Source of the DNA: Patescibacteria group bacterium
GTDB taxonomy: Bacteria > Patescibacteriota > Patescibacteriia > UBA2591 > UBA6264
Direction: 5' to 3'
Length of the DNA: 15,658 nucleotides
Assembly: GCA_028713575.1 (NCBI GenBank)
Contig: JAQTOB010000012.1
Coordinates: 1 to 15,658, forward strand
A model generated the notes under the pieces. The model did not search any database. It was not told where the DNA came from and saw only the letters and a list, made by a program, of their open reading frames with translations. Positions 3,001 to 15,658 of the stretch are shown in pieces. The position numbers were made by a program, and so were the translations under genes. Numbering within the stretch: the first letter of the stretch is position 1; each line of letters opens with the position of its first letter.

Positions 3001-3051
3001 GAGGCGGTGATAAAAGACTTAGAAAGAAAACAAAAACAGTTTTGGTCATAA
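1..3051 (+). CDS. Large membrane protein, 5'-truncated by the window edge. It has a TrbL/VirB6-like polytopic membrane region, then a ~800-aa Lys/Glu/Asn/Gln-rich coiled-coil with internal tandem repeats, then a C-terminal globular region.
   Basis: Frame 1 is open from base 1 (FRIVILWFLVLLSPVAF...), so the TTG at 25 in the ORF track is probably internal and the gene continues upstream. Three hydrophobic helices lie in the first ~125 aa (VLLSPVAFMGSVL; VIVGPILAFFLWLSFSMV; ILNFIIGIGMLLGSLMVAQQMGV). They are followed by a Gly/Ala/Lys-rich tail (AGGKMAGQALGKIQAMGSGVAK), as seen after the last TM of TrbL/VirB6-type proteins. The gene sits upstream of VirB3/VirB4-like genes. That this is a coding region is near certain; the VirB6 assignment rests on motif and synteny recognition only. 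Confidence 0.55.
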   Translation, partial: FRIVILWFLVLLSPVAFMGSVLPSFQRYANQWWEKFTSQVIVGPILAFFLWLSFSMVQTSDNIYKTVVVPGSQTEEYIAGGMSNSAGTGTQLSAAISEAGRPEYILNFIIGIGMLLGSLMVAQQMGVAGGKMAGQALGKIQAMGSGVAKWPFKTAGKGIKSLSKYAVKSAEASVGIPLTKERWQRILADRREWIDKKRDAKFIKQREKGILSFLPKGEAGEKGWSHVLTWKEGGKAIGRVFQGLTGKADKLRKKATEMGKNKQEEDETSEHKIREGEILNQDKQYENKLNEQRENKNQLETNSNIFTKSGDRIMQLDDVDKYIENLEAQIEKARSKNEDDPWVGKAEIFLEGLKKQTTLAKKGNQKTIDLNTLGPNVDKNFYSQNITKWFNKEVKTAGQAIEKTEQEQENWQKKKKNYEFTKEDYTNVRSGMTNLEMSITELNLDEQTKNKFLKRINDLQDELGDGSDDAFNKLSQEKKNELAHKAWTLKDDLEQETDNLKKEGKIDTDQIMGIKDFCKKIHSSLSKEVIKESFTREDHEKTKGNIKNLAATIETLDLSPEAKNNLQNELNALQKELETPFDELTLGKRNRIASQFEKIKDNLNQEMENNKIAPEKAQKISDSAQGIHSTLNRRVVGRFTREDHEKTKGNIKNLAATIETLDLSPEAKGYFQNELNALQKELETPFDKLTPEKKSRIANQFEKIKDNLNQEMENNKIAPEKAQEISDSAQGVHLILEKEKKLKEKIEKRKQLEHEIADLQSQAEMIQPRTMTAEQRRVLNVEVMKEYESVKEIDDSQELITLYRQAEKKKNVGLAKAILMKLNSQNDINEILGEFNLEQNFRGMADLGKIIHDKLGISQQEAYMFINDLSFKNKNAGLYRLSAAVGRDKRTGLYRPLDEEEHKKIVLIESGKAESENFYRKASWAALFGKKTDPNTGERIPIFDETTEAMLKRDIDTIHKELLQNFRLEKEMQRNMAHKNVLDGMKNMLSAMYGEAKIKMEAVIKDLERKQKQFWS
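1258..2229 (+). repeat. In-frame tandem repeat inside the VirB6-like gene. One diverged unit (1258-1599, 114 aa) is followed by two near-identical 315-nt / 105-aa units (1600-1914 and 1915-2229).
   Basis: Each unit starts with FT(K/R)ED(Y/H). Units 2 and 3 both read FTREDHEKTKGNIKNLAATIETLDLSPEAK...NELNALQKELETPFD...QFEKIKDNLNQEMENNKIAPEKAQ.ISDSAQG. The first ~90 nt of units 2 and 3 (from 1600 and 1915) are identical. Close similarity continues to about 1884 and 2199, with scattered substitutions. Unit 1 (FTKEDYTNVRSGMTNLEMSITELNLDEQTKNKFLKRINDLQDEL...) is recognisable only at the protein level. Confidence 0.9.
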
Positions 3052-3066
3052 TAAAATATTTTAAAT

Positions 3067-4989
3067 ATGTTGGAAAAGGAAAAATTAAATTTTCTTATTG
3101 AAGAAACGAGAGAAAAAATAAAACAAGAAATTGCTGAAGGATTTTTTTATCATTCTGATAAGATGAAAAAGTGGTATCAAACTAGAAAAGAATTAGGGGA
3201 GTTTTTAAAAAAAGGGGGCGACTTAAAAGAAACTAATCCTTTGGTTTATGACCAATGTTTAGATTTATTAAATAAAATTAAATGGTTTTCTTTTGTTCAT
3301 CTGAAGTCAGAAGATTTTATTGATTTATTCAGACAGGGCTTAAAATATGCCTTAATGAGCAAAGATTATCCCTTAGAAAAAAATTTAAGCATGTTTTTAA
3401 TTGACATTCCTATTCTTTCTGTCAGGGATGAATATAAAGGGAAAATACGCGAAGCAATGTTTGCTAATCAAGAAAAATTAACTTCCAAGAAAATTGTTAT
3501 GGGAAATAAAGAAAAAGACCCAACCATAAGTAATTGGTTAAAATTTTATGACACAGAGTTAGGGGCGGGAAATGTGGAAAAATTAAAAACATTAGAAATT
3601 TTATTTAACAATAAAAATGTTATCAAATTGTCAACCGAAGAAAAGCAAGTAATCAAACGTTTGATTGACCTTTATGAGGAATTAAAAATATCCGCTATAA
3701 CCGTAGAAGGATTGGAAGAAGAAGATTATGTTATAGATGAAAATGGAGAAATAGAATATCATAAAAGAAGTTATGTGGAAAAAATCAGTCAAGGATTTGC
3801 TAAAACAAAAAAACAAAAAGCATTAAAATTAGAAAAAGAAATGATTCAGGAAAAGATAAAGGCGGAAAAAATTAAAGAAGAAGCGAATTTAATTGATATA
3901 AATCAAGCAATCGGAGAAGTAATTAAAAGAACTAATTTAACATTCCCCCAAGAGGACCTTGAAAAAAGATTTAAAAATATTATTTTGTCTTTTTTAAAAG
4001 ATGTCCGCACGGGCATTGAAACAAAAATTACCCTTAAAAGAGAAACGCAAATTGGCGGCATGGGATTTGACCAAGAAACAACTGATAAAATAATGGATAT
4101 TTTAAAAAATGTTAAGCCTAAAATTGACCAAAAGTTTTTAAAAGAAGAATTGTTATCAAATGGGGTTTTAAAATCAGAATTATCAACAAAAATGTCGTTT
4201 CCCGCTGGTCAATTAGATAAAATTATTCAAACAGAAACAAGGCAGACATTAAACGTTGAACCAATAAGCAAAAAAAAAGAGACAATTGCGTCTAAACAGG
4301 AGCAAGTTTTTAAAACAAAATCAAAGTCACCTTTTGTTCCTCCGCCAATTATTAAACAAACGCCCTCCGCGCCTGTTTTATCAGAGCAAAAGACAATACC
4401 TTCTCTTCAAGCATCAATTTCAACCTCCACAGTTAAACAAGAGCCGGTCATCCAAATTCAAGAATCAACAATTAAAAAAGAAGTCAAGCCAAAGCTGGAA
4501 GAAAAACAAAAAACAGAAACACAAATTTCTTTATCTAAAGACATTGTTTCGCCGTCGCAAAATATTTCCCAGACAAAAACAGAAGAACCCGTTAAAATAG
4601 AAATACCCGTTCGTCGGCCAATTGAATTGCACAAACCCGTGGTTGAAGAAATAAAAGTCAAACCTAAAACATACAGCCCCATTGATGAACTAAGGACAAT
4701 CACTTTAATTGATTGGCGTCGCTGGGGAACCCCGAAAGAAGCAGCCAAAATGGTTCAAAATAAAATAAATTTATTAGCCGAAGAATCTTTAGTTAAAAAA
4801 GCCGAAGGAATTAAGGCCTGGAAGAGTTCAGAAATTAATCAATTATATTTAAATATTGGGGCAGAATCAATTGACCAAGGAAAGTCGGTAAATGAAATAA
4901 TTATCCAAAGACAGCAACAAAATAAGCCAACCCTGAACGAAGAAGAGTTTAATGTTGTGGTGGAATTGAACCAGAAACTGCGCTTCTAA
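3067..4989 (+). CDS. Hypothetical 640-aa protein with no predicted TM segment or signal peptide. It has an N-terminal globular region, a Lys/Glu-rich helical region, a Pro/Ser/Thr/Gln/Lys-rich low-complexity spacer and a compact C-terminal domain.
   Basis: Long ORF starting 15 nt after the preceding stop, on the same strand as the T4SS-like genes. The low-complexity spacer spans roughly nt 4260-4690 (SPFVPPPIIKQTPSAPVLSEQKTIPSLQASISTSTVKQEPVIQIQ...). The C-terminal ~100 aa reads LIDWRRWGTPKEAAKMVQNKINLLAEESLVKKAEGIKAWKSSEINQLYLNIG.... I do not recognise a family. Confidence 0.7.
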   Translation: MLEKEKLNFLIEETREKIKQEIAEGFFYHSDKMKKWYQTRKELGEFLKKGGDLKETNPLVYDQCLDLLNKIKWFSFVHLKSEDFIDLFRQGLKYALMSKDYPLEKNLSMFLIDIPILSVRDEYKGKIREAMFANQEKLTSKKIVMGNKEKDPTISNWLKFYDTELGAGNVEKLKTLEILFNNKNVIKLSTEEKQVIKRLIDLYEELKISAITVEGLEEEDYVIDENGEIEYHKRSYVEKISQGFAKTKKQKALKLEKEMIQEKIKAEKIKEEANLIDINQAIGEVIKRTNLTFPQEDLEKRFKNIILSFLKDVRTGIETKITLKRETQIGGMGFDQETTDKIMDILKNVKPKIDQKFLKEELLSNGVLKSELSTKMSFPAGQLDKIIQTETRQTLNVEPISKKKETIASKQEQVFKTKSKSPFVPPPIIKQTPSAPVLSEQKTIPSLQASISTSTVKQEPVIQIQESTIKKEVKPKLEEKQKTETQISLSKDIVSPSQNISQTKTEEPVKIEIPVRRPIELHKPVVEEIKVKPKTYSPIDELRTITLIDWRRWGTPKEAAKMVQNKINLLAEESLVKKAEGIKAWKSSEINQLYLNIGAESIDQGKSVNEIIIQRQQQNKPTLNEEEFNVVVELNQKLRF

Positions 4990-5074
4990 AAATAGGCAAT
5001 TAGGTGCCTTGGTAATCATGATTTAATATACATTCCCAATGGTTATTTAATTAACAAATCCCCAATTAACCAAT

Positions 5075-5518
5075 ATGCAATTTGTTGTCCCCCAATTTAT
5101 TGATATAGAAAGTAAAATTATCGGGCCAATCACGCCTCGTCAATTTATTATTCTTTTTATTACAGCGGGAGCAATTATTTTATGTTATAAATTAGCCGAT
5201 TTTGCCCTTTTCATCATTGAGGCGATAATTATTCTTGGTTTGGGCGTGGCTTTGGCCTTTGCAAAGATTAACAATCAACCAATTTATTATTTTCTTTTGA
5301 ATATCATCAATGTTGCCAGAAAACCAAATTTAAGAATTTGGCGCCGGGAAGTTATTCAAGTGGTAGAAAAAGACATTAAGGAAAAAACAAAAATCAAGGA
5401 AACAACTAAGGTTCGTCAACCGCTTTCATTTTCTAATTTTTCCAAAGTTGCTCTTTTAGTTGATACGGGGGGGAAATATAAAGAAGAATTGACGGAAAAT
5501 GAAGATTTCAAAATATAG
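5075..5518 (+). CDS. PrgI-family / VirB3-like small T4SS membrane protein
   Basis: The N-terminus MQFVVPQFIDIESKIIGPITPRQFIILFITAGAIILCY, followed by a second hydrophobic helix (ALFIIEAIIILGLGVALAF), matches the PrgI-family pattern: (V)P..I...(D/E)KI.GPLT.RQF followed by two TM helices. It lies immediately upstream of the VirB4-like genes, which is the usual VirB3-VirB4 order. Confidence 0.75.
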   Translation: MQFVVPQFIDIESKIIGPITPRQFIILFITAGAIILCYKLADFALFIIEAIIILGLGVALAFAKINNQPIYYFLLNIINVARKPNLRIWRREVIQVVEKDIKEKTKIKETTKVRQPLSFSNFSKVALLVDTGGKYKEELTENEDFKI

Positions 5519-5559
5519 AATCTGCAAAAAGTTTTAATATCAAAATATAATAATAATTT

Positions 5560-6213
5560 ATGGCAATACCTTCAACACAGAGATATTTAGACATTTCGGA
5601 AATCAAAAATGATTGCGTGGTTTTAAAAAACGGAAGTCTATGTGCCGTTTTATTGGCTTCTTCCATAAATTTTGCCCTTAAATCAGAAGACGAACAAAAC
5701 GCAATTATCCAAAATTATATTCGGTTTTTAAATAGTTTAGAATACACAATCCAAATTGTTATTCAGTCCCGGCCGTTTAATATTAAGCCCTATATTTCTC
5801 AATTAGAAGAATTAAGAAAAGTTCAAAGGAACGAGCTTTTAAAAGTTCAAATGGCTGATTATTCTGATTTTATTAAAGAGTTGGTTCAATTGGGAGAAAT
5901 AATGACCAGGCGTTTTTACATTGTTGTTCCTTACAATCCTTTGGGGGACAAAAAAAGAAGTTTTTTTTCCCGATTTAAAGACATTTTTAGCACAGTTAAA
6001 TTAATTAAAATAAAACAAGAAAAATTTGAAAAATATAGGGAAGAGCTTTTTTCAAGAGTTGATAATGTCATTTCAGGGTTGAATAGCTTGGGGCTTACAG
6101 TTGTTCCTTTAGACACGCAAAGCTTAATAGAGATTTTTTATAATATTTATAATCCGACTGAGGCAGAGATTCAACCAATGGGAGAATTAAAGGATTTAAT
6201 GGTGGAAAAATAA
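5560..6213 (+). CDS. 217-aa protein resembling the N-terminal (non-ATPase) domain of Gram-positive-type VirB4 conjugation ATPases. It has no Walker motifs.
   Basis: STQRYLDISEIKNDCVVLKNGSLCAVLLASSINFALKSEDEQNAIIQNYIRFLNSLEYTIQIVIQSR follows the pattern I recall from the N-termini of Tn916 Orf16 / TcpF-type VirB4 proteins (..Q..IP.....DGI......Y.KT..F.DINY.L...ED...IF..W..FLN.FD..I..QL). Its stop codon is 1 nt from the start of the VirB4 ATPase gene. Confidence 0.55.
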   Translation: MAIPSTQRYLDISEIKNDCVVLKNGSLCAVLLASSINFALKSEDEQNAIIQNYIRFLNSLEYTIQIVIQSRPFNIKPYISQLEELRKVQRNELLKVQMADYSDFIKELVQLGEIMTRRFYIVVPYNPLGDKKRSFFSRFKDIFSTVKLIKIKQEKFEKYREELFSRVDNVISGLNSLGLTVVPLDTQSLIEIFYNIYNPTEAEIQPMGELKDLMVEK

Positions 6214-6214
6214 T

Positions 6215-8095
6215 ATGGCGATAAAACCTTCGGCTCTCAATGAGTCAAAAATTGAAAAAGAAAAAATAAAAACCACCCCTCTTAAAGAAGATAAATCAAA
6301 AGAAATTGTTGAAACAGAGGAATTTTATCGAAAAGGAACAGTCACAGTTTTAGATTTAATCGCTCCTTCGGCCTTAAGGGTTGCCCCTCAATATCTTCAA
6401 TTGGGCGATCGGTATTTAAGAACGATTTTTATTTCCACTTTTCCCCGGTATGTTTCTGTGGGATGGTTTGTTCCAATAATAAATTTTAATGCTCATTTGG
6501 ATGTAGCCATGTTTTTTTATCCGGTCCAAACTAAAATAATTTTGAAACAATTACAAAAACAGGTTGGTAATTTAGAGGCTGAATTATCTGCGGAACAAGA
6601 AAAAGGAATGCCTCGCGACCCTCTTAAAGAAACTGCTTTAAGAGACGTTGAAAGACTAAGAGATGATTTAACTACTGGGGTTGAACATTTTTTTCAATTT
6701 GCCCTTTATACTACCATATACGCCAAAAACGAAAAAGAACTTGATACATTAACGGAAAAAATAGAAAGTTTATTTGCCGCCAAACTGGTCAAAACAAGGA
6801 GGTCTTTTTATCAATCTGAACAGGGTTTTAATTCTACTCTGCCTTTAGCTCAGGATGAATTAATGGTGACAATGAATATAAATTCCTCTCCTTGTGCTTC
6901 AAGTTTTCCTTTTATTTCTTCTGACCTAACTTCAAATAACGGAGTTCTTTACGGCATAAATCGGCACAATAATAGCCTGGTTCTTTTTGACCGTTTTTCC
7001 ATGCCTAACGCTAATTTTATTGTTTTTGCCACTTCTGGGTCGGGAAAGAGTTATTTTTGTAAGCTTGAAGTTTTACGTTCTTTAATGTTGGGAACGGACG
7101 TTATTGTCATTGACCCAGAAAAAGAATATAAACATCTTTCTGACGCTGTAGGGGGAACATATATTAATATTTCTTTGGCCTCGGATAGTAAAATCAATCC
7201 TTTTGATTTGCCGCAAACTGCGGCCAAAGATGTTAAAACTACGGATATTATTCGTTCAGGAGTGATTGCCATTAAGGGACTGTTAAAAATTATGATTGGT
7301 CGGAACTTAGAGGGAGGAACAAAGGGATTTACGCCCCAAGAAGACTCTTTAATGGACCGGGCATTATTAGAAACATATGCCAAAAAAGACATTGTCCCCG
7401 GATGTGACTTAACTAGAGTAGACCCGCCAACGATGAGCGACCTTCAGGAAGTTCTTAGTGGCATGGAAGGAGGAGGAGATTTGGTTGAAAGATTAAAAAA
7501 ATATACGGAAGGCACATTTTCCGGATTTTTGAACAATTCAACCAATGTTAAGATGAATAATCAATTAGTGGTTTTTTCCGTTCGCGACTTAGAAGATGAG
7601 TTAAGGCCCATGGCCATTTATACCATTGTTAACTACATTTGGAATGTAGTGCGTTCGGAATTAAAAAAAAGGATTTTGCTTATTGATGAGGCCTGGTGGT
7701 TAATGCAACATGAAGATTCCGCCAAATTCATCTTTGCTCTGGTCAAACGTTGCCGAAAATATTATTTAGGCGTTACCACTATTACCCAAGACGTTAACGA
7801 TTTTTTGCTGTCACCTTACGGTCGGGCAATTGTTACTAACTCGGCGATGCAGTTGCTTTTAAAACAATCTCCGGCAGCAATTAATTCCGTGACCAAAACT
7901 TTTATTCTCACTGAAGGAGAAAAATATTTACTTTTGGAATGTGGCATAGGAGAAGGCATATTTTTCGCCGGCTCTAAACATGTGGCTATTAAAGTGGTTG
8001 CTTCTTATTCAGAAGACCAATTAATAACTTCTGACCCCAAGCAACTATTGGAAATAGAAGAATCAAAAAAAGAGTTTTCCCAAAATTTAGAATAA
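6215..8095 (+). CDS. virB4: VirB4-family type IV secretion / conjugation ATPase (TrsE/PrgJ/TcpF-like)
   Basis: The Walker A motif is FATSGSGKSY (GSGKS at nt 7037-7051). The Walker B motif is RILLIDEAWWL (nt ~7673-7705). The N-terminal VirB4-type domain reads LGDRYLRTIFISTFPRYVSVGWFVPIINFNAHLDVAMFFYPVQ. The C-terminal motifs RKYYLGVTTITQDVNDF and NSAMQLLLKQ are typical of VirB4/TraC-like ATPases. Confidence 0.9.
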   Translation: MAIKPSALNESKIEKEKIKTTPLKEDKSKEIVETEEFYRKGTVTVLDLIAPSALRVAPQYLQLGDRYLRTIFISTFPRYVSVGWFVPIINFNAHLDVAMFFYPVQTKIILKQLQKQVGNLEAELSAEQEKGMPRDPLKETALRDVERLRDDLTTGVEHFFQFALYTTIYAKNEKELDTLTEKIESLFAAKLVKTRRSFYQSEQGFNSTLPLAQDELMVTMNINSSPCASSFPFISSDLTSNNGVLYGINRHNNSLVLFDRFSMPNANFIVFATSGSGKSYFCKLEVLRSLMLGTDVIVIDPEKEYKHLSDAVGGTYINISLASDSKINPFDLPQTAAKDVKTTDIIRSGVIAIKGLLKIMIGRNLEGGTKGFTPQEDSLMDRALLETYAKKDIVPGCDLTRVDPPTMSDLQEVLSGMEGGGDLVERLKKYTEGTFSGFLNNSTNVKMNNQLVVFSVRDLEDELRPMAIYTIVNYIWNVVRSELKKRILLIDEAWWLMQHEDSAKFIFALVKRCRKYYLGVTTITQDVNDFLLSPYGRAIVTNSAMQLLLKQSPAAINSVTKTFILTEGEKYLLLECGIGEGIFFAGSKHVAIKVVASYSEDQLITSDPKQLLEIEESKKEFSQNLE

Positions 8096-8108
8096 TAAAA
8101 ATATTTTT

Positions 8109-8651
8109 ATGATTAAAAAAAATAAGATACTTATTATCGTTATTGTTCTTATCTTAGTTTTTATTCTTGCTTTTTTTCTTTTATCACAAAAGAAGAGGGT
8201 TAATCAAATGAGTTCATTCCCCGAAAAAACAGAACAAGAAAAAATGGAAGAATTTGAAGGAAAAACCCAAACGACAGAAGACCCGATTATTGCCCTAAAA
8301 GCAAAATTAACTCTTCAGGCTCGTTTTTTCATAGAGCGTTATGGGAGTTATTCTTCAGATAGCAATTACAACAATCGTCGGGCTATGGAAGACCAGATGA
8401 CCGAAAAATTATTTACCAGGGTTATTGAAGAAATAAATTTAAAAGAATTAACAAACGAATTTTATTCTTTAGAGACAAAGGTGATTAATGTTGAATTAAA
8501 AGAGTTTGGCGAAAAAAAAGTCGTTTTTAATGCTCAGATTCAGGAAAAAGAGATAAAATCAGGACAAATAACGACCCTGCCAAAACAAACAGAATTAATT
8601 TTTATCAAGGAAAGCGAGGATTGGAAAATAGATGAAATAAATATATTTTAA
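8109..8651 (+). CDS. Bitopic membrane protein with an N-terminal TM anchor and a ~140-aa extracytoplasmic domain. It may be a VirB8/PrgL-like (NTF2-like) T4SS component.
   Basis: The TM segment is ILIIVIVLILVFILAFFLLS. The soluble domain has an alpha-then-beta pattern (ARFFIERYGSYSS...VINVELKEFGEKKVVFNAQIQEKEI...ELIFIKESEDWKIDEINIF), ending in a W.I strand typical of NTF2-like folds. It sits directly after virB4. The VirB8-like call rests only on architecture and position. Confidence 0.35.
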   Translation: MIKKNKILIIVIVLILVFILAFFLLSQKKRVNQMSSFPEKTEQEKMEEFEGKTQTTEDPIIALKAKLTLQARFFIERYGSYSSDSNYNNRRAMEDQMTEKLFTRVIEEINLKELTNEFYSLETKVINVELKEFGEKKVVFNAQIQEKEIKSGQITTLPKQTELIFIKESEDWKIDEINIF

Positions 8652-8660
8652 TTCAGTTTT

Positions 8661-9374
8661 ATGGTTGAAGAAGAACAGAGGAATCAAGCCGACATAGAGC
8701 AGGAAAGAAAAAGGGCGCTTTATCAAGAACAAAGAAAAAATGCAGGCAAAAAGGAAGCAAAAACGAAAAAGGGACCCAAAAAACAAAGTTCTTTAAACCA
8801 AGAATCTTTGATTAACAGGCCGGAGAAAAAAAATAGTAAAACTGCGCCAAATGACGAGGAAAACGAGGAAGAGCAAGCAAGAGAACTGAGAAAAAAACAA
8901 GCAACAGAACGGTTAGAAAAATCTCAAGCATTGCTTAACAAAGATAAATCAGAGGGAGGCGGAAAAAGAAAAGCCATTAAAGACGCCATGTCGGCCATTA
9001 AAGAACAGGGTTCTGAAGAAGTTTTTAAACAAGCCTCCGGTTTTATTCATAATATTCTTTGGGGATCTCTTTTTACACCAAGCTTTCTCTTTAGTTTGGC
9101 GGGATTAAATATTTATTTTTTAGCTTCAGCAGGTCTTTTTGATAGTTTTATTCCTGAATTGTCTAAAAAAATATCTCCATTTGGACTTCTTATAAAATTG
9201 TTAGGTCGATTTGGCGGGATGATTTTAGGAACGCTTGTTTTGGGCCTTTTGGATTTAATCCTTCTTGCTTTGTTATTATTTATTTTTTTAATTATTTATT
9301 GGTTTATCCATCCCGGAGAATTGATTAAATTTTTGCCGGCTTGGGAAAAATTTGAAAATTTATTTAATTTATAA
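8661..9374 (+). CDS. Hypothetical membrane protein with a ~130-aa highly charged Lys/Glu-rich N-terminal region and a C-terminal cluster of hydrophobic helices
   Basis: The ORF starts 9 nt after the previous stop. The N-terminus reads EEEQRNQADIEQERKRALYQEQRKNAGKKEAKTKKGPKKQ.... The C-terminal hydrophobic segments are ILWGSLFTPSFLFSLAGLNIYFLASAGLF and GGMILGTLVLGLLDLILLALLLFIFLIIYWFI. I do not recognise a family. Confidence 0.6.
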   Translation: MVEEEQRNQADIEQERKRALYQEQRKNAGKKEAKTKKGPKKQSSLNQESLINRPEKKNSKTAPNDEENEEEQARELRKKQATERLEKSQALLNKDKSEGGGKRKAIKDAMSAIKEQGSEEVFKQASGFIHNILWGSLFTPSFLFSLAGLNIYFLASAGLFDSFIPELSKKISPFGLLIKLLGRFGGMILGTLVLGLLDLILLALLLFIFLIIYWFIHPGELIKFLPAWEKFENLFNL

Positions 9375-9384
9375 ATTTTGATTT

Positions 9385-10203
9385 ATGATAAAGAAAAGAT
9401 TATTAATTTTTATTTTAATTGTTTTGTTTTTTATAAATATTAAGTTTACAGAAGCCGCTGTCTATGAAACAGGGTCTTCTGTAGAATTCACTCCCCAGGT
9501 AAGTATTGGGACGGAAATAGAGGCTGGTAAATCAATGGAAATTAGCGGAACGAGCATTGCTAAATATGTCGTTGCTATTTATAACTGGGCTTTGTCTGTT
9601 ATTGTTATTTTGGCCATTGTAATGATTATGGTAGCTGGGGTTCGTTGGATGATGGCTGCCGGCAATGCCTCAATTGTGGGACAAGCCAGGGACCAGATAA
9701 TATCTTCCTTAATAGGATTATTGATTGCCATTGGTTCTTACGCCCTGCTTAATTTTATTAATCCCGCCTTGGTGAGAATGAGGGAAATAGATCCCGGGGG
9801 GATAAAGAATATTAATATTGAGTTCAGAAAATGTGCTGATAATGAAGCATGTGTTTATGATGGTAAAATGAATGATAATTACGATTGTGTCTGTAAGCCA
9901 ACAACGAGAATCTACTTCAATCCGGGGGCGGGTGCAATAGGTCAAGGACTTAGAAAAATTTTAGGATTTAAGACCACAAAAGTAACCACTACTTTTAAGT
10001 CCGACAAGGAGTGCGGTCAGATTGGGTTTTGTGATGGTTGCGGGGGAGTTACAATGGGCGTTAAATGTCTTTATGGCGGTGATTGCGTAGTCAATGATTC
10101 TTTTTACACAGAGGATAATCCTTTAGATGTAAGCGCCATAACCCGAGAGAGTTTTTATAATCCTTCAGCTGCGTATTGCGCTGACCCATCTTTGACCCGT
10201 TAA
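9385..10203 (+). CDS. Secreted T4SS pilin-like protein (VirB2/TrbC-like two-helix hairpin of the type common in CPR genomes) fused to a Cys-rich C-terminal domain
   Basis: The signal peptide MIKKRLLIFILIVLFFINIKFTEA/AVYE is followed by two hydrophobic helices flanking a short polar loop: YNWALSVIVILAIVMIMVAGVRWMMAAGNASIVGQARDQIISSLIGLLIAIGSYALLNFINP. This is the VirB2/T4SS_pilin signature. The last ~125 aa (nt 9832-10200) contain 10 cysteines, whereas the first 149 aa contain none. Confidence 0.7.
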   Translation: MIKKRLLIFILIVLFFINIKFTEAAVYETGSSVEFTPQVSIGTEIEAGKSMEISGTSIAKYVVAIYNWALSVIVILAIVMIMVAGVRWMMAAGNASIVGQARDQIISSLIGLLIAIGSYALLNFINPALVRMREIDPGGIKNINIEFRKCADNEACVYDGKMNDNYDCVCKPTTRIYFNPGAGAIGQGLRKILGFKTTKVTTTFKSDKECGQIGFCDGCGGVTMGVKCLYGGDCVVNDSFYTEDNPLDVSAITRESFYNPSAAYCADPSLTR

Positions 10204-10205
10204 TG

Positions 10206-10241
10206 TGATTGGGCCTGGGGTCTTGATTGGGCCTGGGGTCT
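10206..10241. repeat. Perfect tandem duplication of the GC-rich 18-mer TGATTGGGCCTGGGGTCT. It runs into the palindrome GGGGTC-T-GACCCC (10235-10247).
   Basis: I read this directly: 10206-10223 is identical to 10224-10241. It starts 3 nt after the pilin stop codon, and its G+C content is far above the surrounding AT-rich intergenic DNA. It may act as a terminator or a protein-binding site. Confidence 0.85.
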
Positions 10242-10358
10242 GACCCCCTAAATAGACCTTCTAAAACCCTTGTCAATAAAGGTTTATAGAGCGAAAATTC
10301 CAATTTGGTGTGATTTTGAATGATTTTTAAAAATTTAAAAATTTATAACTAACATCTT

Positions 10359-11645
10359 ATGTCGGAAAAAACAAAAAAAATATTAATTATTATTTTATTT
10401 ATAATTATTGTTATTGGATTGGCCTTGCTTTTATATTTTGTTCTATTTAAAGAAGCGGCACCAGTTGAGACGGTGATTGAGCCAGAAGAAGAAGAAGTCG
10501 TTCCTCGTTTGCCCACAACCAGAGAATCCTGGGAAAGTATGACCATTTCTGAAAGAATTCAGTATGGTTTACCGGCACTTGAATGGCCATCAGAAGAAAT
10601 TGAAGAGATTGTTGAGCCAATTTCAATAATTGTGCCTGAAATTGACGACGTGGCAGATGGAGGGAGGACCTGGGTTACACCGATTTCTGATGACCCGGTA
10701 AAAGGAGCAACATTATCCGCCGATGGCGAGAAAAGTATTTATTATAATTCTGAAACAGGACAATTTTTTTCTACTGATAATTTTAGCAATAAAGAGTTAT
10801 TGACCGAACAAATTTTTTATAATGTTGAAAAAATAAACTGGGCGCCGACAAAAAATAAGGCAATTATTGAATATCCTGACGGATTTAAGATAATCTATGA
10901 TTTTGACACCGAAACACAATATACTTTGCCAAAAAATTGGGAGGAATTTGACTGGAATTTTTCCGGCAGCCAAATAGCCTTTAAGTCGCTTAGTAATTAT
11001 CCGGAGAATAGCTGGTTGGCAATTGCTCAGGCTGACGGTAGCCAGCCCAAACCCATAGAGCACATGGGAGAAAATGCGGACAAGGTGGTGGTTTCTTGGT
11101 CTCCAAACAATCAAGTCGTTGCCTTTTCTTCTACGGGCGAGGCCAGGGGCGTTTGGGAACAAGAAATACTTTTAATTGGACAACATCAAGAGAACAATAA
11201 ATCATTAATTGTTGACGGTCGCGGTTTTGAACCAAAATGGTCGCCCAAGGGGGATAAAATTATTTATAGTATTTACTCTTCTGAGACAAATTATCGGCCC
11301 CAGCTTTATTTAGTAGATGCTCAGGGTAATCAAATCGGACAGAATAAAAAATCATTAAAATTAACCACTTGGGCTCATAAATGTACTTTTAATAAAGACG
11401 CGACCACTATTTATTGCGCCGTCCCTAAGAATTTGCCAGAAGGCGCGGGTTTAGTTTTAGAATTAGCAGAAGATTCTCGCGATGATTTTTACAAAATAGA
11501 TGTGGCAACTGGCATGGTTTCTTTTTTGGCCGAAGACGCCACTGGCGGTTATGATGTGGAAAATGTTTATTTGTCCGAAGACGAAGATTATCTCTATTTT
11601 GTTGATAAAAATACGGAACGGTTGAGATTTATTCAGCTTAAGTAA
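10359..11645 (+). CDS. Membrane-anchored TolB-like / PD40 beta-propeller repeat protein
   Basis: The N-terminal TM segment is ILIIILFIIIVIGLALLLYFVLF. PD40-like repeat signatures recur: INWAPTKNKAIIEY, FSGSQIAFKS, VSWSPNNQVVAFSS, PKWSPKGDKIIYSI. Confidence 0.65.
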   Translation: MSEKTKKILIIILFIIIVIGLALLLYFVLFKEAAPVETVIEPEEEEVVPRLPTTRESWESMTISERIQYGLPALEWPSEEIEEIVEPISIIVPEIDDVADGGRTWVTPISDDPVKGATLSADGEKSIYYNSETGQFFSTDNFSNKELLTEQIFYNVEKINWAPTKNKAIIEYPDGFKIIYDFDTETQYTLPKNWEEFDWNFSGSQIAFKSLSNYPENSWLAIAQADGSQPKPIEHMGENADKVVVSWSPNNQVVAFSSTGEARGVWEQEILLIGQHQENNKSLIVDGRGFEPKWSPKGDKIIYSIYSSETNYRPQLYLVDAQGNQIGQNKKSLKLTTWAHKCTFNKDATTIYCAVPKNLPEGAGLVLELAEDSRDDFYKIDVATGMVSFLAEDATGGYDVENVYLSEDEDYLYFVDKNTERLRFIQLK

Positions 11646-11661
11646 AAGTTTGAAATTTCTA

Positions 11662-11764
11662 ATTAATCTAATTATTCTAATAAATGCCCAATATTCAATT
11701 TTAATGTCTAAATTAATTAATAGGGCTCTGTTAGGTCAATTAGAAATTAGTCAATTAGATTAAT
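11662..11764. promoter_or_regulatory. AT-rich repeat architecture upstream of radA. A 12-nt perfect inverted repeat ATTAATCTAATT (11662-11673) / AATTAGATTAAT (11753-11764) is accompanied by the direct repeat GTCAATTAGA (11735-11744 and 11750-11759).
   Basis: I read this directly from the sequence. The right arm ends 6 nt before the radA ATG. A role as an operator or promoter element is speculative because the region is low-complexity and AT-rich. Confidence 0.25.
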
Positions 11765-11770
11765 TTTTTT

Positions 11771-13078
11771 ATGTCTATTTTTGTTTGTTCAAAATGTGAT
11801 GCTCAATTTCCCAAATGGCTTGGTCAATGTTCGCAATGCGGAGCATGGGGAACAATTATGGAAAAGGGGGAAGAATCAACAGAAATAAAGAATTTTAACA
11901 ATCAAGTTATAGATTTTAATCAGATCAATCAAGAAAAGTTTTTTAAAATAAAAACAGGTTTAAATGAAGTTGATAGGGTTTTGGGGGGCGGAATTGTTTT
12001 TGAGTCATTAATTTTGTTGGGGGGACAGCCGGGGATTGGCAAATCAACATTAGTTTTACAAATTGCAGATAAATCGGCCAATCATCCGGTTTTTTATGTA
12101 AGCGGGGAGGAGTCGGCTCAACAAGTGAAGACGAGAATGGATAGACTCAACATTTCTTCTAATAATTGGAAATTTCTTGGCGAGTCGGACATTAATGTAA
12201 TAATTGCCAGCTTAAAAAGATTTAAGCCCAAGGTTATAATTATAGATTCAATTCAAACTATGGTTTTTCCCGAAATTGCCTCTGAAGCCGGAAATATTAA
12301 TCAAGTGAGAGCCTGTACGTCAAAATTAAGAGAAATAGCCCAAGAATTAAAAGCAGTAGTTTTTATTATTGGTCACGTTACTAAGGAGGGGGTAATGGCC
12401 GGGCCAAAAACGCTTGAACATTTGGTTGACATTGTTTTGTATTTAGAAGGAGACCCCAGTCATCGTTTTCGCTTTCTTCGCGCAGGAAAAAATAGATTTG
12501 GGTCAACAAACGAAGTTGGGGTTTTTGATATGGGTCAGACAGGTTTAATGGAAGTAGTTAATCCTTCGGAGATTTTTTTAGCTAACCGAAACGCGGAAAT
12601 TAGCGGGTCTGTGGTTGTGCCAGTAGTGGAAGGAAGTCGTTCTTTTTTGGTTGAAGTTCAGGCTTTAGTTTCTCGGACTTCTTTTGGTTATCCACAAAGA
12701 AAATCAACAGGTTTTGATTTAAATAGATTGGGGCTTTTAATTGCCGTTTTAATTAAGCGTTGTAATTTTAATTTAGCTAATCAGGATATTCATATAAACA
12801 TTGTTGGTGGTTTGCAGGTTCGTGAGCCAGCCGTTGATTTAGGCGTTGGACTAGCCATTGCTTCCGCCTTTAAAAATAGTCCGATTAATCCGGAAATTGC
12901 TGTTTTTGGAGAAGTTGGTTTAGGAGGAGAAATTAGAGGCGTTAAAGCTACAGAAAAAAGAATTAAAGAAGCTTTTAAATTGGGATTTAAAAAAATTATT
13001 TCTCCGGTTGGAGATTTTGCGGAAACAAAAATCATTCAAGTTAAAAATTTGAATGAAGCTATAGCTCAACTTTGTTGA
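11771..13078 (+). CDS. radA: DNA repair protein RadA/Sms
   Basis: The N-terminal zinc finger is CSKCDAQFPKWLGQCSQCGAWGT (C-x2-C-x10-C-x2-C). The Walker A motif is GGQPGIGKST. The RadA-specific motif KNRFGSTNEVGVFDM is present. The C-terminal Lon-protease-like domain reads INIVGGLQVREPAVDLGVGLAIASAF...EVGLGGEIRGV. Confidence 0.95.
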   Translation: MSIFVCSKCDAQFPKWLGQCSQCGAWGTIMEKGEESTEIKNFNNQVIDFNQINQEKFFKIKTGLNEVDRVLGGGIVFESLILLGGQPGIGKSTLVLQIADKSANHPVFYVSGEESAQQVKTRMDRLNISSNNWKFLGESDINVIIASLKRFKPKVIIIDSIQTMVFPEIASEAGNINQVRACTSKLREIAQELKAVVFIIGHVTKEGVMAGPKTLEHLVDIVLYLEGDPSHRFRFLRAGKNRFGSTNEVGVFDMGQTGLMEVVNPSEIFLANRNAEISGSVVVPVVEGSRSFLVEVQALVSRTSFGYPQRKSTGFDLNRLGLLIAVLIKRCNFNLANQDIHINIVGGLQVREPAVDLGVGLAIASAFKNSPINPEIAVFGEVGLGGEIRGVKATEKRIKEAFKLGFKKIISPVGDFAETKIIQVKNLNEAIAQLC

Positions 13079-13182
13079 TATGGCAAAATTGAACAATTTT
13101 CAAGTATTAAATTACAAATTTAAAACAGTTTTTATCTCAGAATTTTAGATTTTGATATTGTTTATGATTTATGATTTAGGAT

Positions 13183-15267
13183 TTATTCCAGATGAGTTGT
13201 TCGGATAGACTCATTTATTTTTTTTATCAAAAGAGGATAATTTTTAAAATCAGAAGCATTTTTGAATAAGTTTTTAGCAGTTTCGCGCGTTTCTTTAATA
13301 ATTTGTATATCAGAGAGTTTGGCAATTTTTAGGTCATTGGAGAACCCTGATTGTTCCGTGCCAAAAATTTCTCCCGGTCCACGAAGTTCTAAGTCTTTTT
13401 CCGCCAACTCAAAACCATTTTTTGCCTGAATTAAAAATTGAAGTCTTTTTTTTGTTTTTTCTGCTTGAGCAGATAGGTCTCCTTCATTTTCTAAGAATAG
13501 AAAACAATATGACTGGAAGGAACTTCTGCCGATGCGTCCGCGTAGTTGATAAAGTTGAGCCAGCCCGAAACGTTCCGCTCCTTCAATTATCATAATTGAG
13601 GCGTTGGGAACGTCAATTCCCACTTCAACTACGGTGGTGGAAATTAAAATATTAATTTTATTTTCTGAAAAATCTTTCATGATTTTTTCTTTTTGTTCTG
13701 ATTTTAGCCTGCCGTGTAATAAGCCGATTTTAAGGTCGGGGAAAATTTCTTCAGATATTTTTTTATATTCTTCTTTTACTGATTTAACTCCCAGTTTATC
13801 AGAAGGGTCAATTAGTGGGCAAGTGATAAAAGCTTGTCGGCCATTTTTTATTTCCAGTTTAGTAAATTTATAAATGTTTTTTATCTCTTTTGGTTTGATA
13901 ATTTTTGTAATAATTGGTTTTCTTCCCGGCGGAATTTGAGAAATGATAGAAATATCCAAATCTCCATAAAGCGTTAAAGCCACGGAACGAGGAATGGGGG
14001 TGGCCGTCATAGAAAGAAAATGAGGAGAATGGTTAGACGATTGTCTTGTTAATAAAGCGCGTTGATTTACGCCAAAACGATGTTGTTCGTCGGTAATTGC
14101 TAAAACTAAATTTTTAAATTTGGTTTTTTCTTGAATTAATGAGTGCGTGCCAATAATAAAATTTATTTCTCCAACAGAGAGCATTTTCAGTAATTTTTGT
14201 TTTGTCGTTTCCTCTTTATTTGTTTTAATTTTTCCTCTGGTTAAAAGCGCGATTTTAAATGGATATTTTTTAAATAATTTAGAGATGTTCTTAAAATGTT
14301 GTTCAGCCAAGATTTCCGTGGGGGCCATATAAGCGACTTGGTGGCCGGCCAGCAGAACATTAAGAATAGCAATAGCGGCAACAATGGTTTTTCCACTGCC
14401 CACATCGCCTTCTAAAAGGCGATTCATTGGCGTTTCTTTTTCTAAATCTTTTACAATTTCCCACGTCGCTTTTCTTTGCGAATCGGTTAATTTAAACGGA
14501 AGAGACTGAATGAAACTTTTTATTTTATCAGTTTTAAGGTTAATTTTTATTGCTTTCTGGCTTTTTATTTTTTGTTTGATTAATTGATTTCTCATTTGAA
14601 TTAAGAACAATTCGTTAAATTTTAGGCGGCGAGATGCTTTTTCTAACCATTTTTTATTTTGAGGAAAATGGATTTGTTCCAAAGCAAAAGAAAGACTAAT
14701 TAATTCATATTTTGTCCGAATTTCTCTCGGCAACCAATCTTCCGCTTCCTGGGCCAATGGCAAGATTTGACGGACAAGAAAGCGAATTTGTTTTTGAGAT
14801 AGACGCGTTGTACTGGAATAGACGGGGACTAATCGTCCGGTATGAAGAGGACTTTGACGATAAATTTCATAAGAAGGATTGGTTAACTGGAGGCCATAAT
14901 ATTCGTCATGACTGATTTTTCCTGCCAAATATACTTCTTGGCCGGGTTTTAATATTTTGGCTAAAAATGACTGATTGAACCAAATTATTTTTAAAGAATC
15001 GGTTTGGTCAGAAACAATGGCTTCGGTGATGATAATTTTTTTTCTTGGAGAACGATGATTGGCAATCAAGTTTATTTTTGCTTTAATCGTTCCCGATTTT
15101 TTGCTTTTTAAGTCCTTTATCTTAAAAATTTCACTATAATCGTCATAGCGAAAAGGATAATGAAATAACAAATCGCCGGCGGTTTTAATCCCCAGTTTTT
15201 CCATTTGACGGGCGATTGATTTTCCCACTTTGGTTAGTTCAGTAATTGGCGTTTTTATGGTTATCAT
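13183..15267 (-). CDS. recG: ATP-dependent DNA helicase RecG
   Basis: An N-terminal wedge/OB region is followed by superfamily-2 helicase motifs: GDVGSGKT (motif I), DEQHRFGV (motif II), SMTATPIPRS (motif III) and QLRGRIGR (motif VI). The length (694 aa) and the C-terminal LRGPGEIFGTEQSG motif are typical of RecG. Confidence 0.95.
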   Translation of the reverse strand: MITIKTPITELTKVGKSIARQMEKLGIKTAGDLLFHYPFRYDDYSEIFKIKDLKSKKSGTIKAKINLIANHRSPRKKIIITEAIVSDQTDSLKIIWFNQSFLAKILKPGQEVYLAGKISHDEYYGLQLTNPSYEIYRQSPLHTGRLVPVYSSTTRLSQKQIRFLVRQILPLAQEAEDWLPREIRTKYELISLSFALEQIHFPQNKKWLEKASRRLKFNELFLIQMRNQLIKQKIKSQKAIKINLKTDKIKSFIQSLPFKLTDSQRKATWEIVKDLEKETPMNRLLEGDVGSGKTIVAAIAILNVLLAGHQVAYMAPTEILAEQHFKNISKLFKKYPFKIALLTRGKIKTNKEETTKQKLLKMLSVGEINFIIGTHSLIQEKTKFKNLVLAITDEQHRFGVNQRALLTRQSSNHSPHFLSMTATPIPRSVALTLYGDLDISIISQIPPGRKPIITKIIKPKEIKNIYKFTKLEIKNGRQAFITCPLIDPSDKLGVKSVKEEYKKISEEIFPDLKIGLLHGRLKSEQKEKIMKDFSENKINILISTTVVEVGIDVPNASIMIIEGAERFGLAQLYQLRGRIGRSSFQSYCFLFLENEGDLSAQAEKTKKRLQFLIQAKNGFELAEKDLELRGPGEIFGTEQSGFSNDLKIAKLSDIQIIKETRETAKNLFKNASDFKNYPLLIKKINESIRTTHLE

Positions 15268-15318
15268 AAGTTGTTTTATTATAACATTTTAACATTTTAA
15301 ATAATAAAAAAAAAGAGT

Positions 15319-15346
15319 TTGACTTTTTGGGGAAATAAAATATAAT
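15319..15346 (+). promoter_or_regulatory. Near-consensus sigma70-type promoter: TTGACT (15319-15324), 16-nt spacer, TATAAT (15341-15346)
   Basis: Both hexamers are read directly and match the consensus at 5/6 and 6/6 positions. The -10 element ends 19 nt upstream of the tRNA-like sequence. The promoter lies in the divergent intergenic region next to recG. Confidence 0.6.
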
Positions 15347-15365
15347 GTTAATAATGAGAACATTT

Positions 15366-15413
15366 GGAGAGGTGGCTGAGTCCTGCCTGCCGGTAGGCAG
15401 GGGTCGAAAGCGG
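15366..15413 (+). tRNA. tRNA-like 5' fragment (acceptor 5' strand plus D-arm of a class II, Ser-like tRNA) with a 20-nt hairpin inserted in the D-loop. It is incomplete within the window, so it is either interrupted or a pseudo-tRNA.
   Basis: GGAGAGGTGGCTGAGT (15366-15381) and GGTCGAAAGCGG (15402-15413) together match the start of bacterial tRNA-Ser-type genes. They are separated by the near-palindrome CCTGCCTGCCGGTAGGCAGG (15382-15401). No anticodon arm, T-arm (GGTTCGAATCC-like) or 3' acceptor strand (CCTCTCC) occurs between 15414 and 15658. Confidence 0.4.
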
Positions 15414-15418
15414 TCTAT

Positions 15419-15658
15419 ATGTTTTACGTCTACATTCTAAAGAGCCTTAAAGATAATAATCTCTATATAGGGAAAACCAACGATTTACAAAGAAGACTTA
15501 ATGAACATAATGGAAAGCATGTCCAATCAACTAAATCAAGAATTCCCTTTATCATTTTAAAATACTTTAAATGCCGTTCAGAGAAAGAGGCGCTAGAACT
15601 TGAGAAAGAATTTAAAAAAGGGTATAAAAGGGAAAAAATAAAGAGAAAATATAATATT
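15419..15658 (+). CDS. GIY-YIG nuclease family protein (small UPF0213/YhbQ/Slx1-like type), 3'-partial at the window edge
   Basis: This ORF is not in the supplied track because no stop codon falls in the window. My translation is MFYVYILKSLKDNNLYIGKTNDLQRRLNEHNGKHVQSTKSRIPFIILKYFKCRSEKEALELEKEFKKGYKREKIKRKYNI. It carries the GIY-type motif (YVYIL), the YIG motif (LYIGKT), the conserved Arg (LQRRLNEHN) and the downstream Glu (ALELEKEFK). Confidence 0.8.
   Translation, partial: MFYVYILKSLKDNNLYIGKTNDLQRRLNEHNGKHVQSTKSRIPFIILKYFKCRSEKEALELEKEFKKGYKREKIKRKYNI

Follow-up and report, generated by a model that had tools for sequence, protein, structure and literature searches.

A cysteine-rich, strain-variable C-terminal tail on a pilin-family protein of a Patescibacteria type IV secretion system

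A gene for a tailed pilin-family protein of a type IV secretion system (T4SS) was analyzed in contig JAQTOB010000012.1 of a Patescibacteria group bacterium (GenBank assembly GCA_028713575.1), nucleotides (nt) 1–15,658 of which are referred to below as the window. The two-helix hydrophobic core of the protein is followed by a C-terminal tail that contains every cysteine of the protein and is replaced between strains that are nearly identical in the surrounding DNA. On balance, it is probable, if only narrowly so, that the gene encodes a T4SS pilin with a surface-displayed, disulfide-stabilized, strain-variable tail that recognizes a host or a cell wall. The coordinates of the features are collected in Table 1.

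The protein begins with a predicted Sec signal peptide, for which cleavage after T-E-A (A24) is expected from the −3/−1 rule, and the predicted mature protein of approximately 248 amino acids (aa 25–272, including the 142-aa tail) exceeds the approximately 70–100 aa of a canonical small pilin. Hydropathy analysis identified three hydrophobic segments, namely aa 1–27, which is signal-peptide-like, and approximately aa 57–94 and 104–130, and the AlphaFold2 (AF2) model contains helices at aa 55–90 and 95–125/130 that are joined by a short polar loop, AAGNAS; the two-helix core that the original prediction had placed at nt 9547–9774 agrees with both. The P and Q of the FTPQVxIG motif, in the mature N-terminal segment where AF2 confidence is low, vary hardly at all across the 20 sequences of the core alignment (A4), and residues F124, I125, N126, P127, L129, and V130 of the junction motif at the end of helix 2 are invariant (alignment A1). 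The tail starts at aa 131 (nt 9775) with a 19-aa linker that precedes the cysteine-rich domain and falls within regions modeled with a predicted local distance difference test score (pLDDT) below 50 (aa 123–148 in the full-length model and residues 1–10 in the tail-only model). An extension of approximately 125 aa from nt 9832 had been proposed, which correctly encloses all 10 cysteines but is shorter than the actual 142 aa. From the signal peptide and the pair of membrane helices, an extracellular location is expected for the tail.

An uninterrupted pilin open reading frame (ORF), with one nucleotide difference and a product that is identical or altered at a single residue, recurs in two other assemblies, a JGI contig of 517 kb (L002; Ga0378408_0000012) and a Logan contig that stems from another run (L003), and homologous uninterrupted pilin genes of the same architecture are found in two further loci, L004 and L001. 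Because the ORF is unbroken in three independent assemblies, the fusion is not an artefact of a frameshift or of assembly, and the cysteine-rich part belongs to the same gene as the pilin core, as had been proposed.

Judged from sequence comparison, the tail is a recombinationally exchanged cassette. When the window was aligned with L004, a 13.2-kb contig with the same gene order, 218 differences were found over window nt 2163–15401, of which 150 are located within the 423 bp of nt 9781–10203 and 21 more at the 3′ junction, and the remaining ~12.8 kb contains approximately 47. Identity is 100% up to approximately nt 9764, within the codons for NFINP, decreases to approximately 65% across the tail, with indels, and is again 100% from approximately nt 10232, just past the stop codon; correspondingly, aa 1–130 of the two pilins are identical and their tails are about 53–54% identical. 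The L004 tail is 72% identical to that of L001, a locus whose flanks are only 69–83% identical to the window, and this closer relationship of the L004 tail to a distant locus than to the window indicates import by recombination rather than local mutation. The same pattern was observed among L033, L035, and L037, which have flanks of 94–98% identity and the same gene order and carry three unrelated tails (P0013, P0018, and P0012), with alignments that break at the NPSLV motif and resume 25–40 nt past the stop codon, and the same core is joined to a different tail in the pairs P0005/P0008, P0009/P0012, and L010/P0033. The exchange of the tail between near-identical strains makes it a candidate host-contact module.

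Searches of the window and of ±10 kb (the 20-kb locus of L002) revealed neither a repeat nor a silent copy of the tail, and no reverse transcriptase was identified among the neighboring genes. With neither a template repeat, a silent copy, nor a reverse transcriptase found nearby, a diversity-generating retroelement or a pilS-like mechanism was considered but is not supported; the differences extend over 470 bp, and indels are among them. The gene downstream of the pilin, which encodes a 428-aa TolB-like protein, is essentially identical in the window and L004 and is conserved among strains with different tails; it does not co-vary with the tail, an observation that speaks against its being an immunity gene. 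The unit of the 18-bp tandem duplication that the window has at the 3′ junction is present as a single copy in L002 and L003, and the L004 ORF reads into the repeat. An inverted repeat, GGGGTC-T-GACCCC, follows the duplication and also comes after the stop codon in L001, where the gene is longer, and the alleles of the window and L004 terminate at, or inside, a short repeat beside it. No terminator was called at this junction, and its fold is not significantly stable (z = 0.28).

The cysteine-rich domain of the tail, designated module A, contains exactly 10 cysteines (aa 150, 156, 168, 170, 210, 216, 219, 228, 234, and 265), the first codon of which begins at nt 9832 and the last of which finishes at nt 10179, and none is found in aa 1–149. 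Ten cysteines placed at random would all fall among the final 124 of the 272 residues with a probability of 4e-4, and the cysteine content is 3.7% for the protein and 7% for the tail, compared with 0–1.6% for ten neighboring ORFs. The spacings are C-x5-C, C-x-C, C-x5-C-x2-C, and C-x5-C, so that of those first described CxxxxxC and CxC were found, and the supposed CxxxxCxxC is in reality C-x5-C-x2-C. Eight of the cysteines (C150, C156, C168, C170, C210, C228, C234, and C265) form a framework that, together with G211 and Y241, is conserved across the aligned tails of eight, and then of fifteen, homologues; the extra pair, C216 and C219, occurs among these 15 homologues in the window allele only. 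Both C150 and C170 are missing from P0033, and P0006, P0007, and P0013 are without C168 and have a new cysteine at position 147. In a set of 30 homologues with the junction motif, the cores are cysteine-free apart from an occasional signal-peptide cysteine, and the tails, of 105–331 aa, contain 2–26 cysteines, in an even number in 26 of the 30 (binomial P = 3e-5). This gain and loss of cysteines in pairs, and their mostly even counts, favor disulfides. There is no histidine in the translated tail, and the only CxxC (C216/C219) is absent from P0002–P0004, in which module A is 37–56% identical to that of the window. The absence of histidine and the predicted outside location favor five disulfides over metal binding, and the tail is thus probably a disulfide-stabilized extracytoplasmic domain with five disulfides; of the two possibilities originally offered, a disulfide-knotted or a metal-binding module, the former is supported and the latter appears unlikely.

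Module A is without a detectable relative outside the pilin family and without a known fold. The AF2 model of the tail, made from a 15-sequence alignment, is beta-rich with one helix (pLDDT 80.1; predicted template modeling score 0.72), and a Foldseek search with this model against PDB and BFVD returned nothing with E < 1, nor did a Pfam scan of the tail give a match at E ≤ 1. An exhaustive search of 1.84 billion representative proteins with a module A profile returned 12 matches at E ≤ 1e-3, 11 of which are pilin-fused tails or fragments of such tails. The remaining match, P0029, is 2012 aa long and contains approximately 19–23 repeats resembling family 1 carbohydrate-binding modules (CBM1), at 8–15 bits per repeat.

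Long C-terminal tails predominate in this Patescibacteria pilin subfamily. A scan for the motif [LI]L[NYS][FLQ]INP[SA]LV over one genome per GTDB species identified 28 Patescibacteria loci, distributed among Kerfeld-, Veblen-, Doudna-, and Andersenbacteria, Paceibacterota, Saccharibacteria, and unclassified lineages; some of the record titles say “Gammaproteobacteria” and are apparently mislabeled. A hidden Markov model of the core detected approximately 50 pilin ORFs in these loci, approximately 45 of which have tails of 140–380 aa; arrays of 2–5 pilin paralogues occur, and short tail-less forms are present in L027 and L030. The suggestion that such a domain is unusual for T4SS pili therefore applies in comparison with VirB2/TraA and with the short pilins of Saccharibacteria and does not apply within this Patescibacteria subfamily. 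Since the essential pilins of Southlakia epibionticum are short (381–417 nt), the tailed form represents a distinct subtype. A second cysteine-rich module, module B, continues the L001 gene and is also found in P0004, P0005, and P0011, but not in the window or L004 alleles.

A Pfam scan of 49 distinct family tails identified VanY in 8, Peptidase_M15 in 4, and Peptidase_M15_4 in 2 (three M15-type counts that may overlap), SLT lytic transglycosylase in 4, CHAP in 1, and GDSL in 1, and the remaining tails, including that of the window, had no Pfam match. PF18895, the family of Patescibacteria T4SS pilins, and VanY are found on one polypeptide in L016 (9722–10858), L018 (9515–10906), and P0027, and an SLT domain (E 1e-17) follows the pilin core in L025 (7397–8596); these pilin–hydrolase fusions span several Patescibacteria, including Saccharibacteria. 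The L010 tail, which has M15-like motifs (SxHxxGxAxD and WHF), was not confirmed by Pfam at E ≤ 1e-3 and was not counted. The presence of peptidoglycan hydrolases in the tails of relatives points to the C-terminal position as a payload slot, and their occurrence in the same slot lends support to a role outside the cytoplasm, directed at the cell envelope, for the cysteine-rich modules that are not enzymes.

Its profile matches place the gene in an already described family, the PF18895 pilins, in which it belongs to a long-tailed, cassette-bearing subtype; no description of the tails or of their cassette behavior was found in the available literature. The hydrophobic hairpin, for which a match to a T4SS pilin profile had been anticipated, matched PF18895 over aa 64–116 (E 5.3e-6, 26.9 bits, compared with a Pfam gathering cut-off of 26.6), and the match to the NCBIfam entry NF045849, a pilin-like conjugal transfer protein, was sub-threshold (E 6e-4). 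Precomputed PF18895 matches exist for 23 of the 27 database homologues, several of which are named “pilin [Patescibacteria group bacterium]” by NCBI, and the L010 orthologue scores 33.2 bits. Approximately 20 core positions show little or no variation, among them those of the FTPQV motif and of the loop. A Foldseek search with the full-length model returned generic helical hairpins only (E ≥ 0.8) and is uninformative for the core. The relationship to VirB2 is indirect and would run through the S. epibionticum PF18895 pilins SEML1_0018 and SEML1_0019, which also match PF04956 (TrbC/VirB2); among the homologues of the window protein, P0006 has a sub-threshold match to this family (E 0.029).

These observations suggest the following course of events. 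The Sec signal peptide and the two hydrophobic helices would place a hairpin in the cytoplasmic membrane with both ends outside, and the tail, once outside the membrane, would oxidize to five disulfides and form a beta-rich domain; the joint gains and losses of cysteines and the analogy with CBM1 predict the pairs C150–C170, C156–C168, C216–C219, C210–C234, and C228–C265. The VirB4-driven T4SS encoded upstream may then extract the hairpin cores and assemble them into a pilus or stalk. In VirB2-type pili both termini face outward, and by analogy the tail would coat the filament; held on the outside of the structure by the flexible linker of approximately 19 aa, it may contact the envelope of a host or target. 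Homologous recombination through the conserved core (up to NFINPxLV) and through the downstream intergenic region and gene would swap tails and thereby diversify specificity.

Several points weigh against this account of a displayed recognition tail. As regards the disulfides, many candidate phyla radiation bacteria live in anoxic water. The PF18895 membership score is marginal, at 0.3 bit over the cut-off, and the window protein has no match to PF04956 at E ≤ 0.1. The core profile, built from 20 sequences, gave 0 matches at E ≤ 10 against PDB sequences, and hhalign of the core with Agrobacterium VirB2, the sequence of which was checked against PDB 8cue, gave a probability of only 5%, so that direct homology to VirB2 is not demonstrated here; the same alignment pairs the VirB2 segment LAVLGIVAIGISWMFG with LAIVMIMVAGVRWMMAAG, which occupy equivalent helix ends and are topologically equivalent. 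The analysis found neither a binding partner nor a lectin fold nor an adhesin family for the tail, and its likeness to CBM1, a possible carbohydrate-binding sub-motif that is not significant per repeat, is a weak lead. That a subunit bearing a 15-kDa domain polymerizes is unproven, and the search for short tail-less pilins, which could form the bulk of a filament, covered ±10 kb. Furthermore, for none of the Patescibacteria T4SSs has a pilus been observed (PMC12857230, PMC11665869), and reviews speak of such a structure as “potential” (PMC12857230); display of the module on every subunit of a filament, as first suggested, is a conjecture.

Some of the same points suit a membrane-anchored accessory exoprotein, in which the hairpin would be only an anchor or a channel lining and the tail would act at the surface of its own cell or at a contact site, where it might, for example, span the wall or S-layer of that cell, bind to it, or hold the host envelope; this is a possibility to be taken seriously, though it is not the probable one. 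The VirB2 homology is statistically weak here, tails of 140–380 aa, and even whole enzymes, are bulky for every subunit of a VirB2-type structure, the essential Saccharibacteria pilins are short, so that tailed forms may differ in role, and Gram-positive-type T4SSs are generally without pili (PMC12102498, PMC12857230). However, the conservation of the core at approximately 20 near-invariant positions extends far beyond the needs of an anchor, the tailed pilin is the sole pilin-family gene found within ±10 kb of the T4SS cluster, and S. epibionticum members of the same family match TrbC/VirB2. A tentative and rather doubtful extension of the displayed-tail account is that the C-terminal slot is a general swappable payload position, in which every filament subunit would bear either a recognition module or a hydrolase, so that in epibiotic members of this radiation the pilus both sets the host range, through the allele of its tail, and breaches the wall.

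The strict motif that separates the conserved core from a hypervariable C-terminal domain could alternatively be a processing site, at which the tail is cleaved from a pro-pilin during maturation or released as a polymorphic effector. The C-terminus of RP4 TrbC is trimmed before cyclization, and relatives hold effector-like enzymes (M15, SLT, and CHAP) in the slot. This alternative is nevertheless unlikely, as no variable immunity-like gene is found downstream, no TraF/LepB-like maturation peptidase was detected among the cluster genes in the Pfam and NCBIfam scans, NFINPxLV is hydrophobic and placed at the end of a predicted membrane helix, where it would make a poor protease site, and module A resembles a small structural or binding domain more than a toxin. 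Cassette replacement is also typical of phage-receptor and antigenic surface proteins, and no ligand-binding family was detected for the tail; it may thus be an exposed phage receptor or host-defense target that is replaced under negative frequency-dependent selection and has no ligand of its own. Such evasion is very unlikely as the explanation, since it accounts neither for the hydrolases in the slot nor for the retention of the eight-cysteine framework across divergent alleles, and it is compatible with a recognition tail rather than exclusive of it. Finally, a zinc or iron-sulfur domain, which the C-x5-C-x2-C spacing superficially resembles, is most improbable given the absence of histidine from the tail, the lack of the sole CxxC in P0002–P0004, the predicted extracytoplasmic location, and the paired changes of cysteines, and an artefactual fusion of two genes is equally so, because the reading frame runs unbroken through three independent assemblies and every homologue.

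Table 1. Features of the pilin-family gene and of the adjacent T4SS genes in the window
Feature	Position (nt)	Strand	Basis or remark
Complete gene, tailed T4SS pilin-family protein	9385–10203	+	272 aa plus stop; ORF list
Predicted Sec signal peptide, aa 1–24	9385–9456	+	MIKKRLLIFILIVLFFINIKFTEA, followed by A; KKR n-region, hydrophobic stretch
Mature N-terminal segment, predicted extracellular	9457–9546	+	FTPQVxIG motif at aa 35–42, nt 9487–9510
Two-helix hydrophobic pilin core, aa 55–130	9547–9774	+	Hydropathy, AF2, PF18895
Junction motif LNFINPALV, aa 122–130, end of helix 2	9748–9774	+	Holds cassette 5′ breakpoint, approximately nt 9765
Linker, aa 131–149, 19 aa	9775–9831	+	Low-confidence structure
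Cysteine-rich module A, aa 150–272	9832–10200	+	Cysteine positions, framework conservation, AF2
Strain-variable cassette	9765–10232	+	Replaced between strains otherwise ~99.5% identical
18-bp tandem duplication (TGATTGGGCCTGGGGTCT x2) at 3′ junction	10206–10241	+	Right after pilin stop codon
PrgI/VirB3-like	5075–5518	+	PrgI E 1.4e-6
TrsD/VirB4-N-like (TrsD/TraC-N-like), 217 aa	5560–6213	+	TrsD E 4.9e-10
VirB4 ATPase, 626 aa	6215–8095	+	CD1110 family E 7.6e-102
180-aa membrane protein	8109–8651	+	T4SS cluster
237-aa membrane protein	8661–9374	+	T4SS cluster
428-aa TolB-like beta-propeller, N-terminal membrane helix	10359–11645	+	TolB propeller E 2.6e-10

The pilin gene ends a same-strand gene cluster in which PrgI, TrsD-like, and VirB4 genes, annotated from Pfam and NCBIfam matches, are located 1.3–4.3 kb upstream, and the cluster is a Patescibacteria monoderm-type (MPF-FATA-like) T4SS. 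The order PrgI-TrsD-VirB4-p180-(p237)-pilin-TolB-like-RadA is retained in approximately 12 GTDB loci, the VirB4 proteins of which are 69–89% identical to that of the window. VirB4 is split into two ORFs one base apart (5560–6213 and 6215–8095), as it is in related loci, and in L037 (4805–8710) and L038 (1742–5647) the VirB4 orthologue has 1301 aa and contains an intein (Intein_splicing and LAGLIDADG_3). In approximately 10 related genomes, the TolB-like protein is always encoded between the pilin gene and radA, and it may be an unrecognized component of the T4SS. Farther upstream, ORF 25–3051 encodes a VirB6-like hydrophobic N-terminal part followed by a long coiled-coil, reaches 1229 aa or more in L002, and contains a 315-bp tandem duplication (window 1597–1893 and 1912–2208; 92% identical) that encodes repeated units of 105 aa. 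A 640-aa ORF between the VirB6-like gene and PrgI (window 3067–4989) is intact in the window and L004; its counterpart in the near-identical L002 (3684–5605) is called as two genes (153 and 471 aa), which suggests a strain-level disruption. Upstream of recG, the region at approximately window 15200–15400 contains 42 of the 124 differences between the window and L002, which are otherwise 99.2% identical, and this cluster of differences probably represents an indel or a variable intergenic segment.

PF18895 has been used to find VirB2-like pilins in 1,948 assemblies, and monoderm T4SSs are widespread in Patescibacteria (PMC12102498). The Patescibacteria T4SS, the genes of which often lie close to the origin of replication, is essential to epibiotic growth in the one species tested, and its role is described as completely unknown (PMC11665869, PMC10633639, PMC12102498). 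In the window, a pilin-family gene of such a T4SS carries a predicted outward-facing domain that behaves like a specificity determinant, in that it is unique to pilins, preserves a framework of cysteines as its other residues diverge, is exchanged as a whole between strains that are otherwise ~99.5% identical, and shares its slot with hydrolases in relatives; the tail would provide a direct experimental handle on the function of this essential T4SS. Most genomes with PF18895 pilins are without a separate VirB1 (PMC12102498), and PF18895 proteins fall into many structure clusters in published freshwater metagenomes. The pilin–hydrolase fusions may explain the scarcity of separate VirB1 genes, and swappable tails may account both for this scarcity and for the multiplicity of structure clusters.

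Canonical conjugative pilins, which work in diderms, are approximately 70 aa in their mature form and have no globular domain, and some are cyclized or C-terminally trimmed. VirB2 of the T-pilus (PDB 8cue/8exh), TraA of F, and TrbC of RP4 share the plan of the window pilin, with a signal peptide, two helices, a polar loop, and a T4SS operon, but have no significant sequence match to it. Flagellin (FliC) and allelic type IV pilins are analogous in combining a polymerizing core with a variable, recombining surface domain: the hypervariable outer domains of flagellin and the alleles of type IV pilins are replaced by recombination between strains, and type IV pilins have a disulfide-bonded C-terminal region. 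In contrast to these proteins, with which there is no homology, the variable part of the window pilin is a C-terminal appendage rather than an insert, and silent cassettes were not found within ±10 kb of the gene. Polymorphic toxins such as CdiA-CT and Rhs are similar in that a conserved N-terminal carrier and a junction motif (here NFINPxLV) precede unrelated C-terminal domains in one slot; they differ in that the window has no co-varying immunity gene, module A has no toxin signature, and the carrier is a two-helix hairpin. The second half of module A has a motif-level likeness to fungal CBM1 (C-G-x..G-x-K-C-x(3-5)-C-V-x(3-4)-[FY]-Y-[ST]-[EQ]), although the aligned position holds no counterpart of the fourth CBM1 cysteine and the tail matched CBM_1 (PF00734) neither in Pfam at E ≤ 1 nor in Foldseek. 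The comparison that is supported by membership of the same family is that with S. epibionticum ML1, which has an essential array of PF18895 pilins, SEML1_0014-0019 (PMC10633639; surveyed in PMC12102498). In both organisms a signal peptide precedes a two-helix hydrophobic core, and the T4SS cluster is of the monoderm type, with VirB4, TrsD, and PrgI and with no relaxase or coupling protein in the region seen. SEML1_0017-0019 are short (381–417 nt) and arrayed, whereas the locus of the window has just one such gene, which bears a 142-aa, strain-exchanged, cysteine-rich tail.

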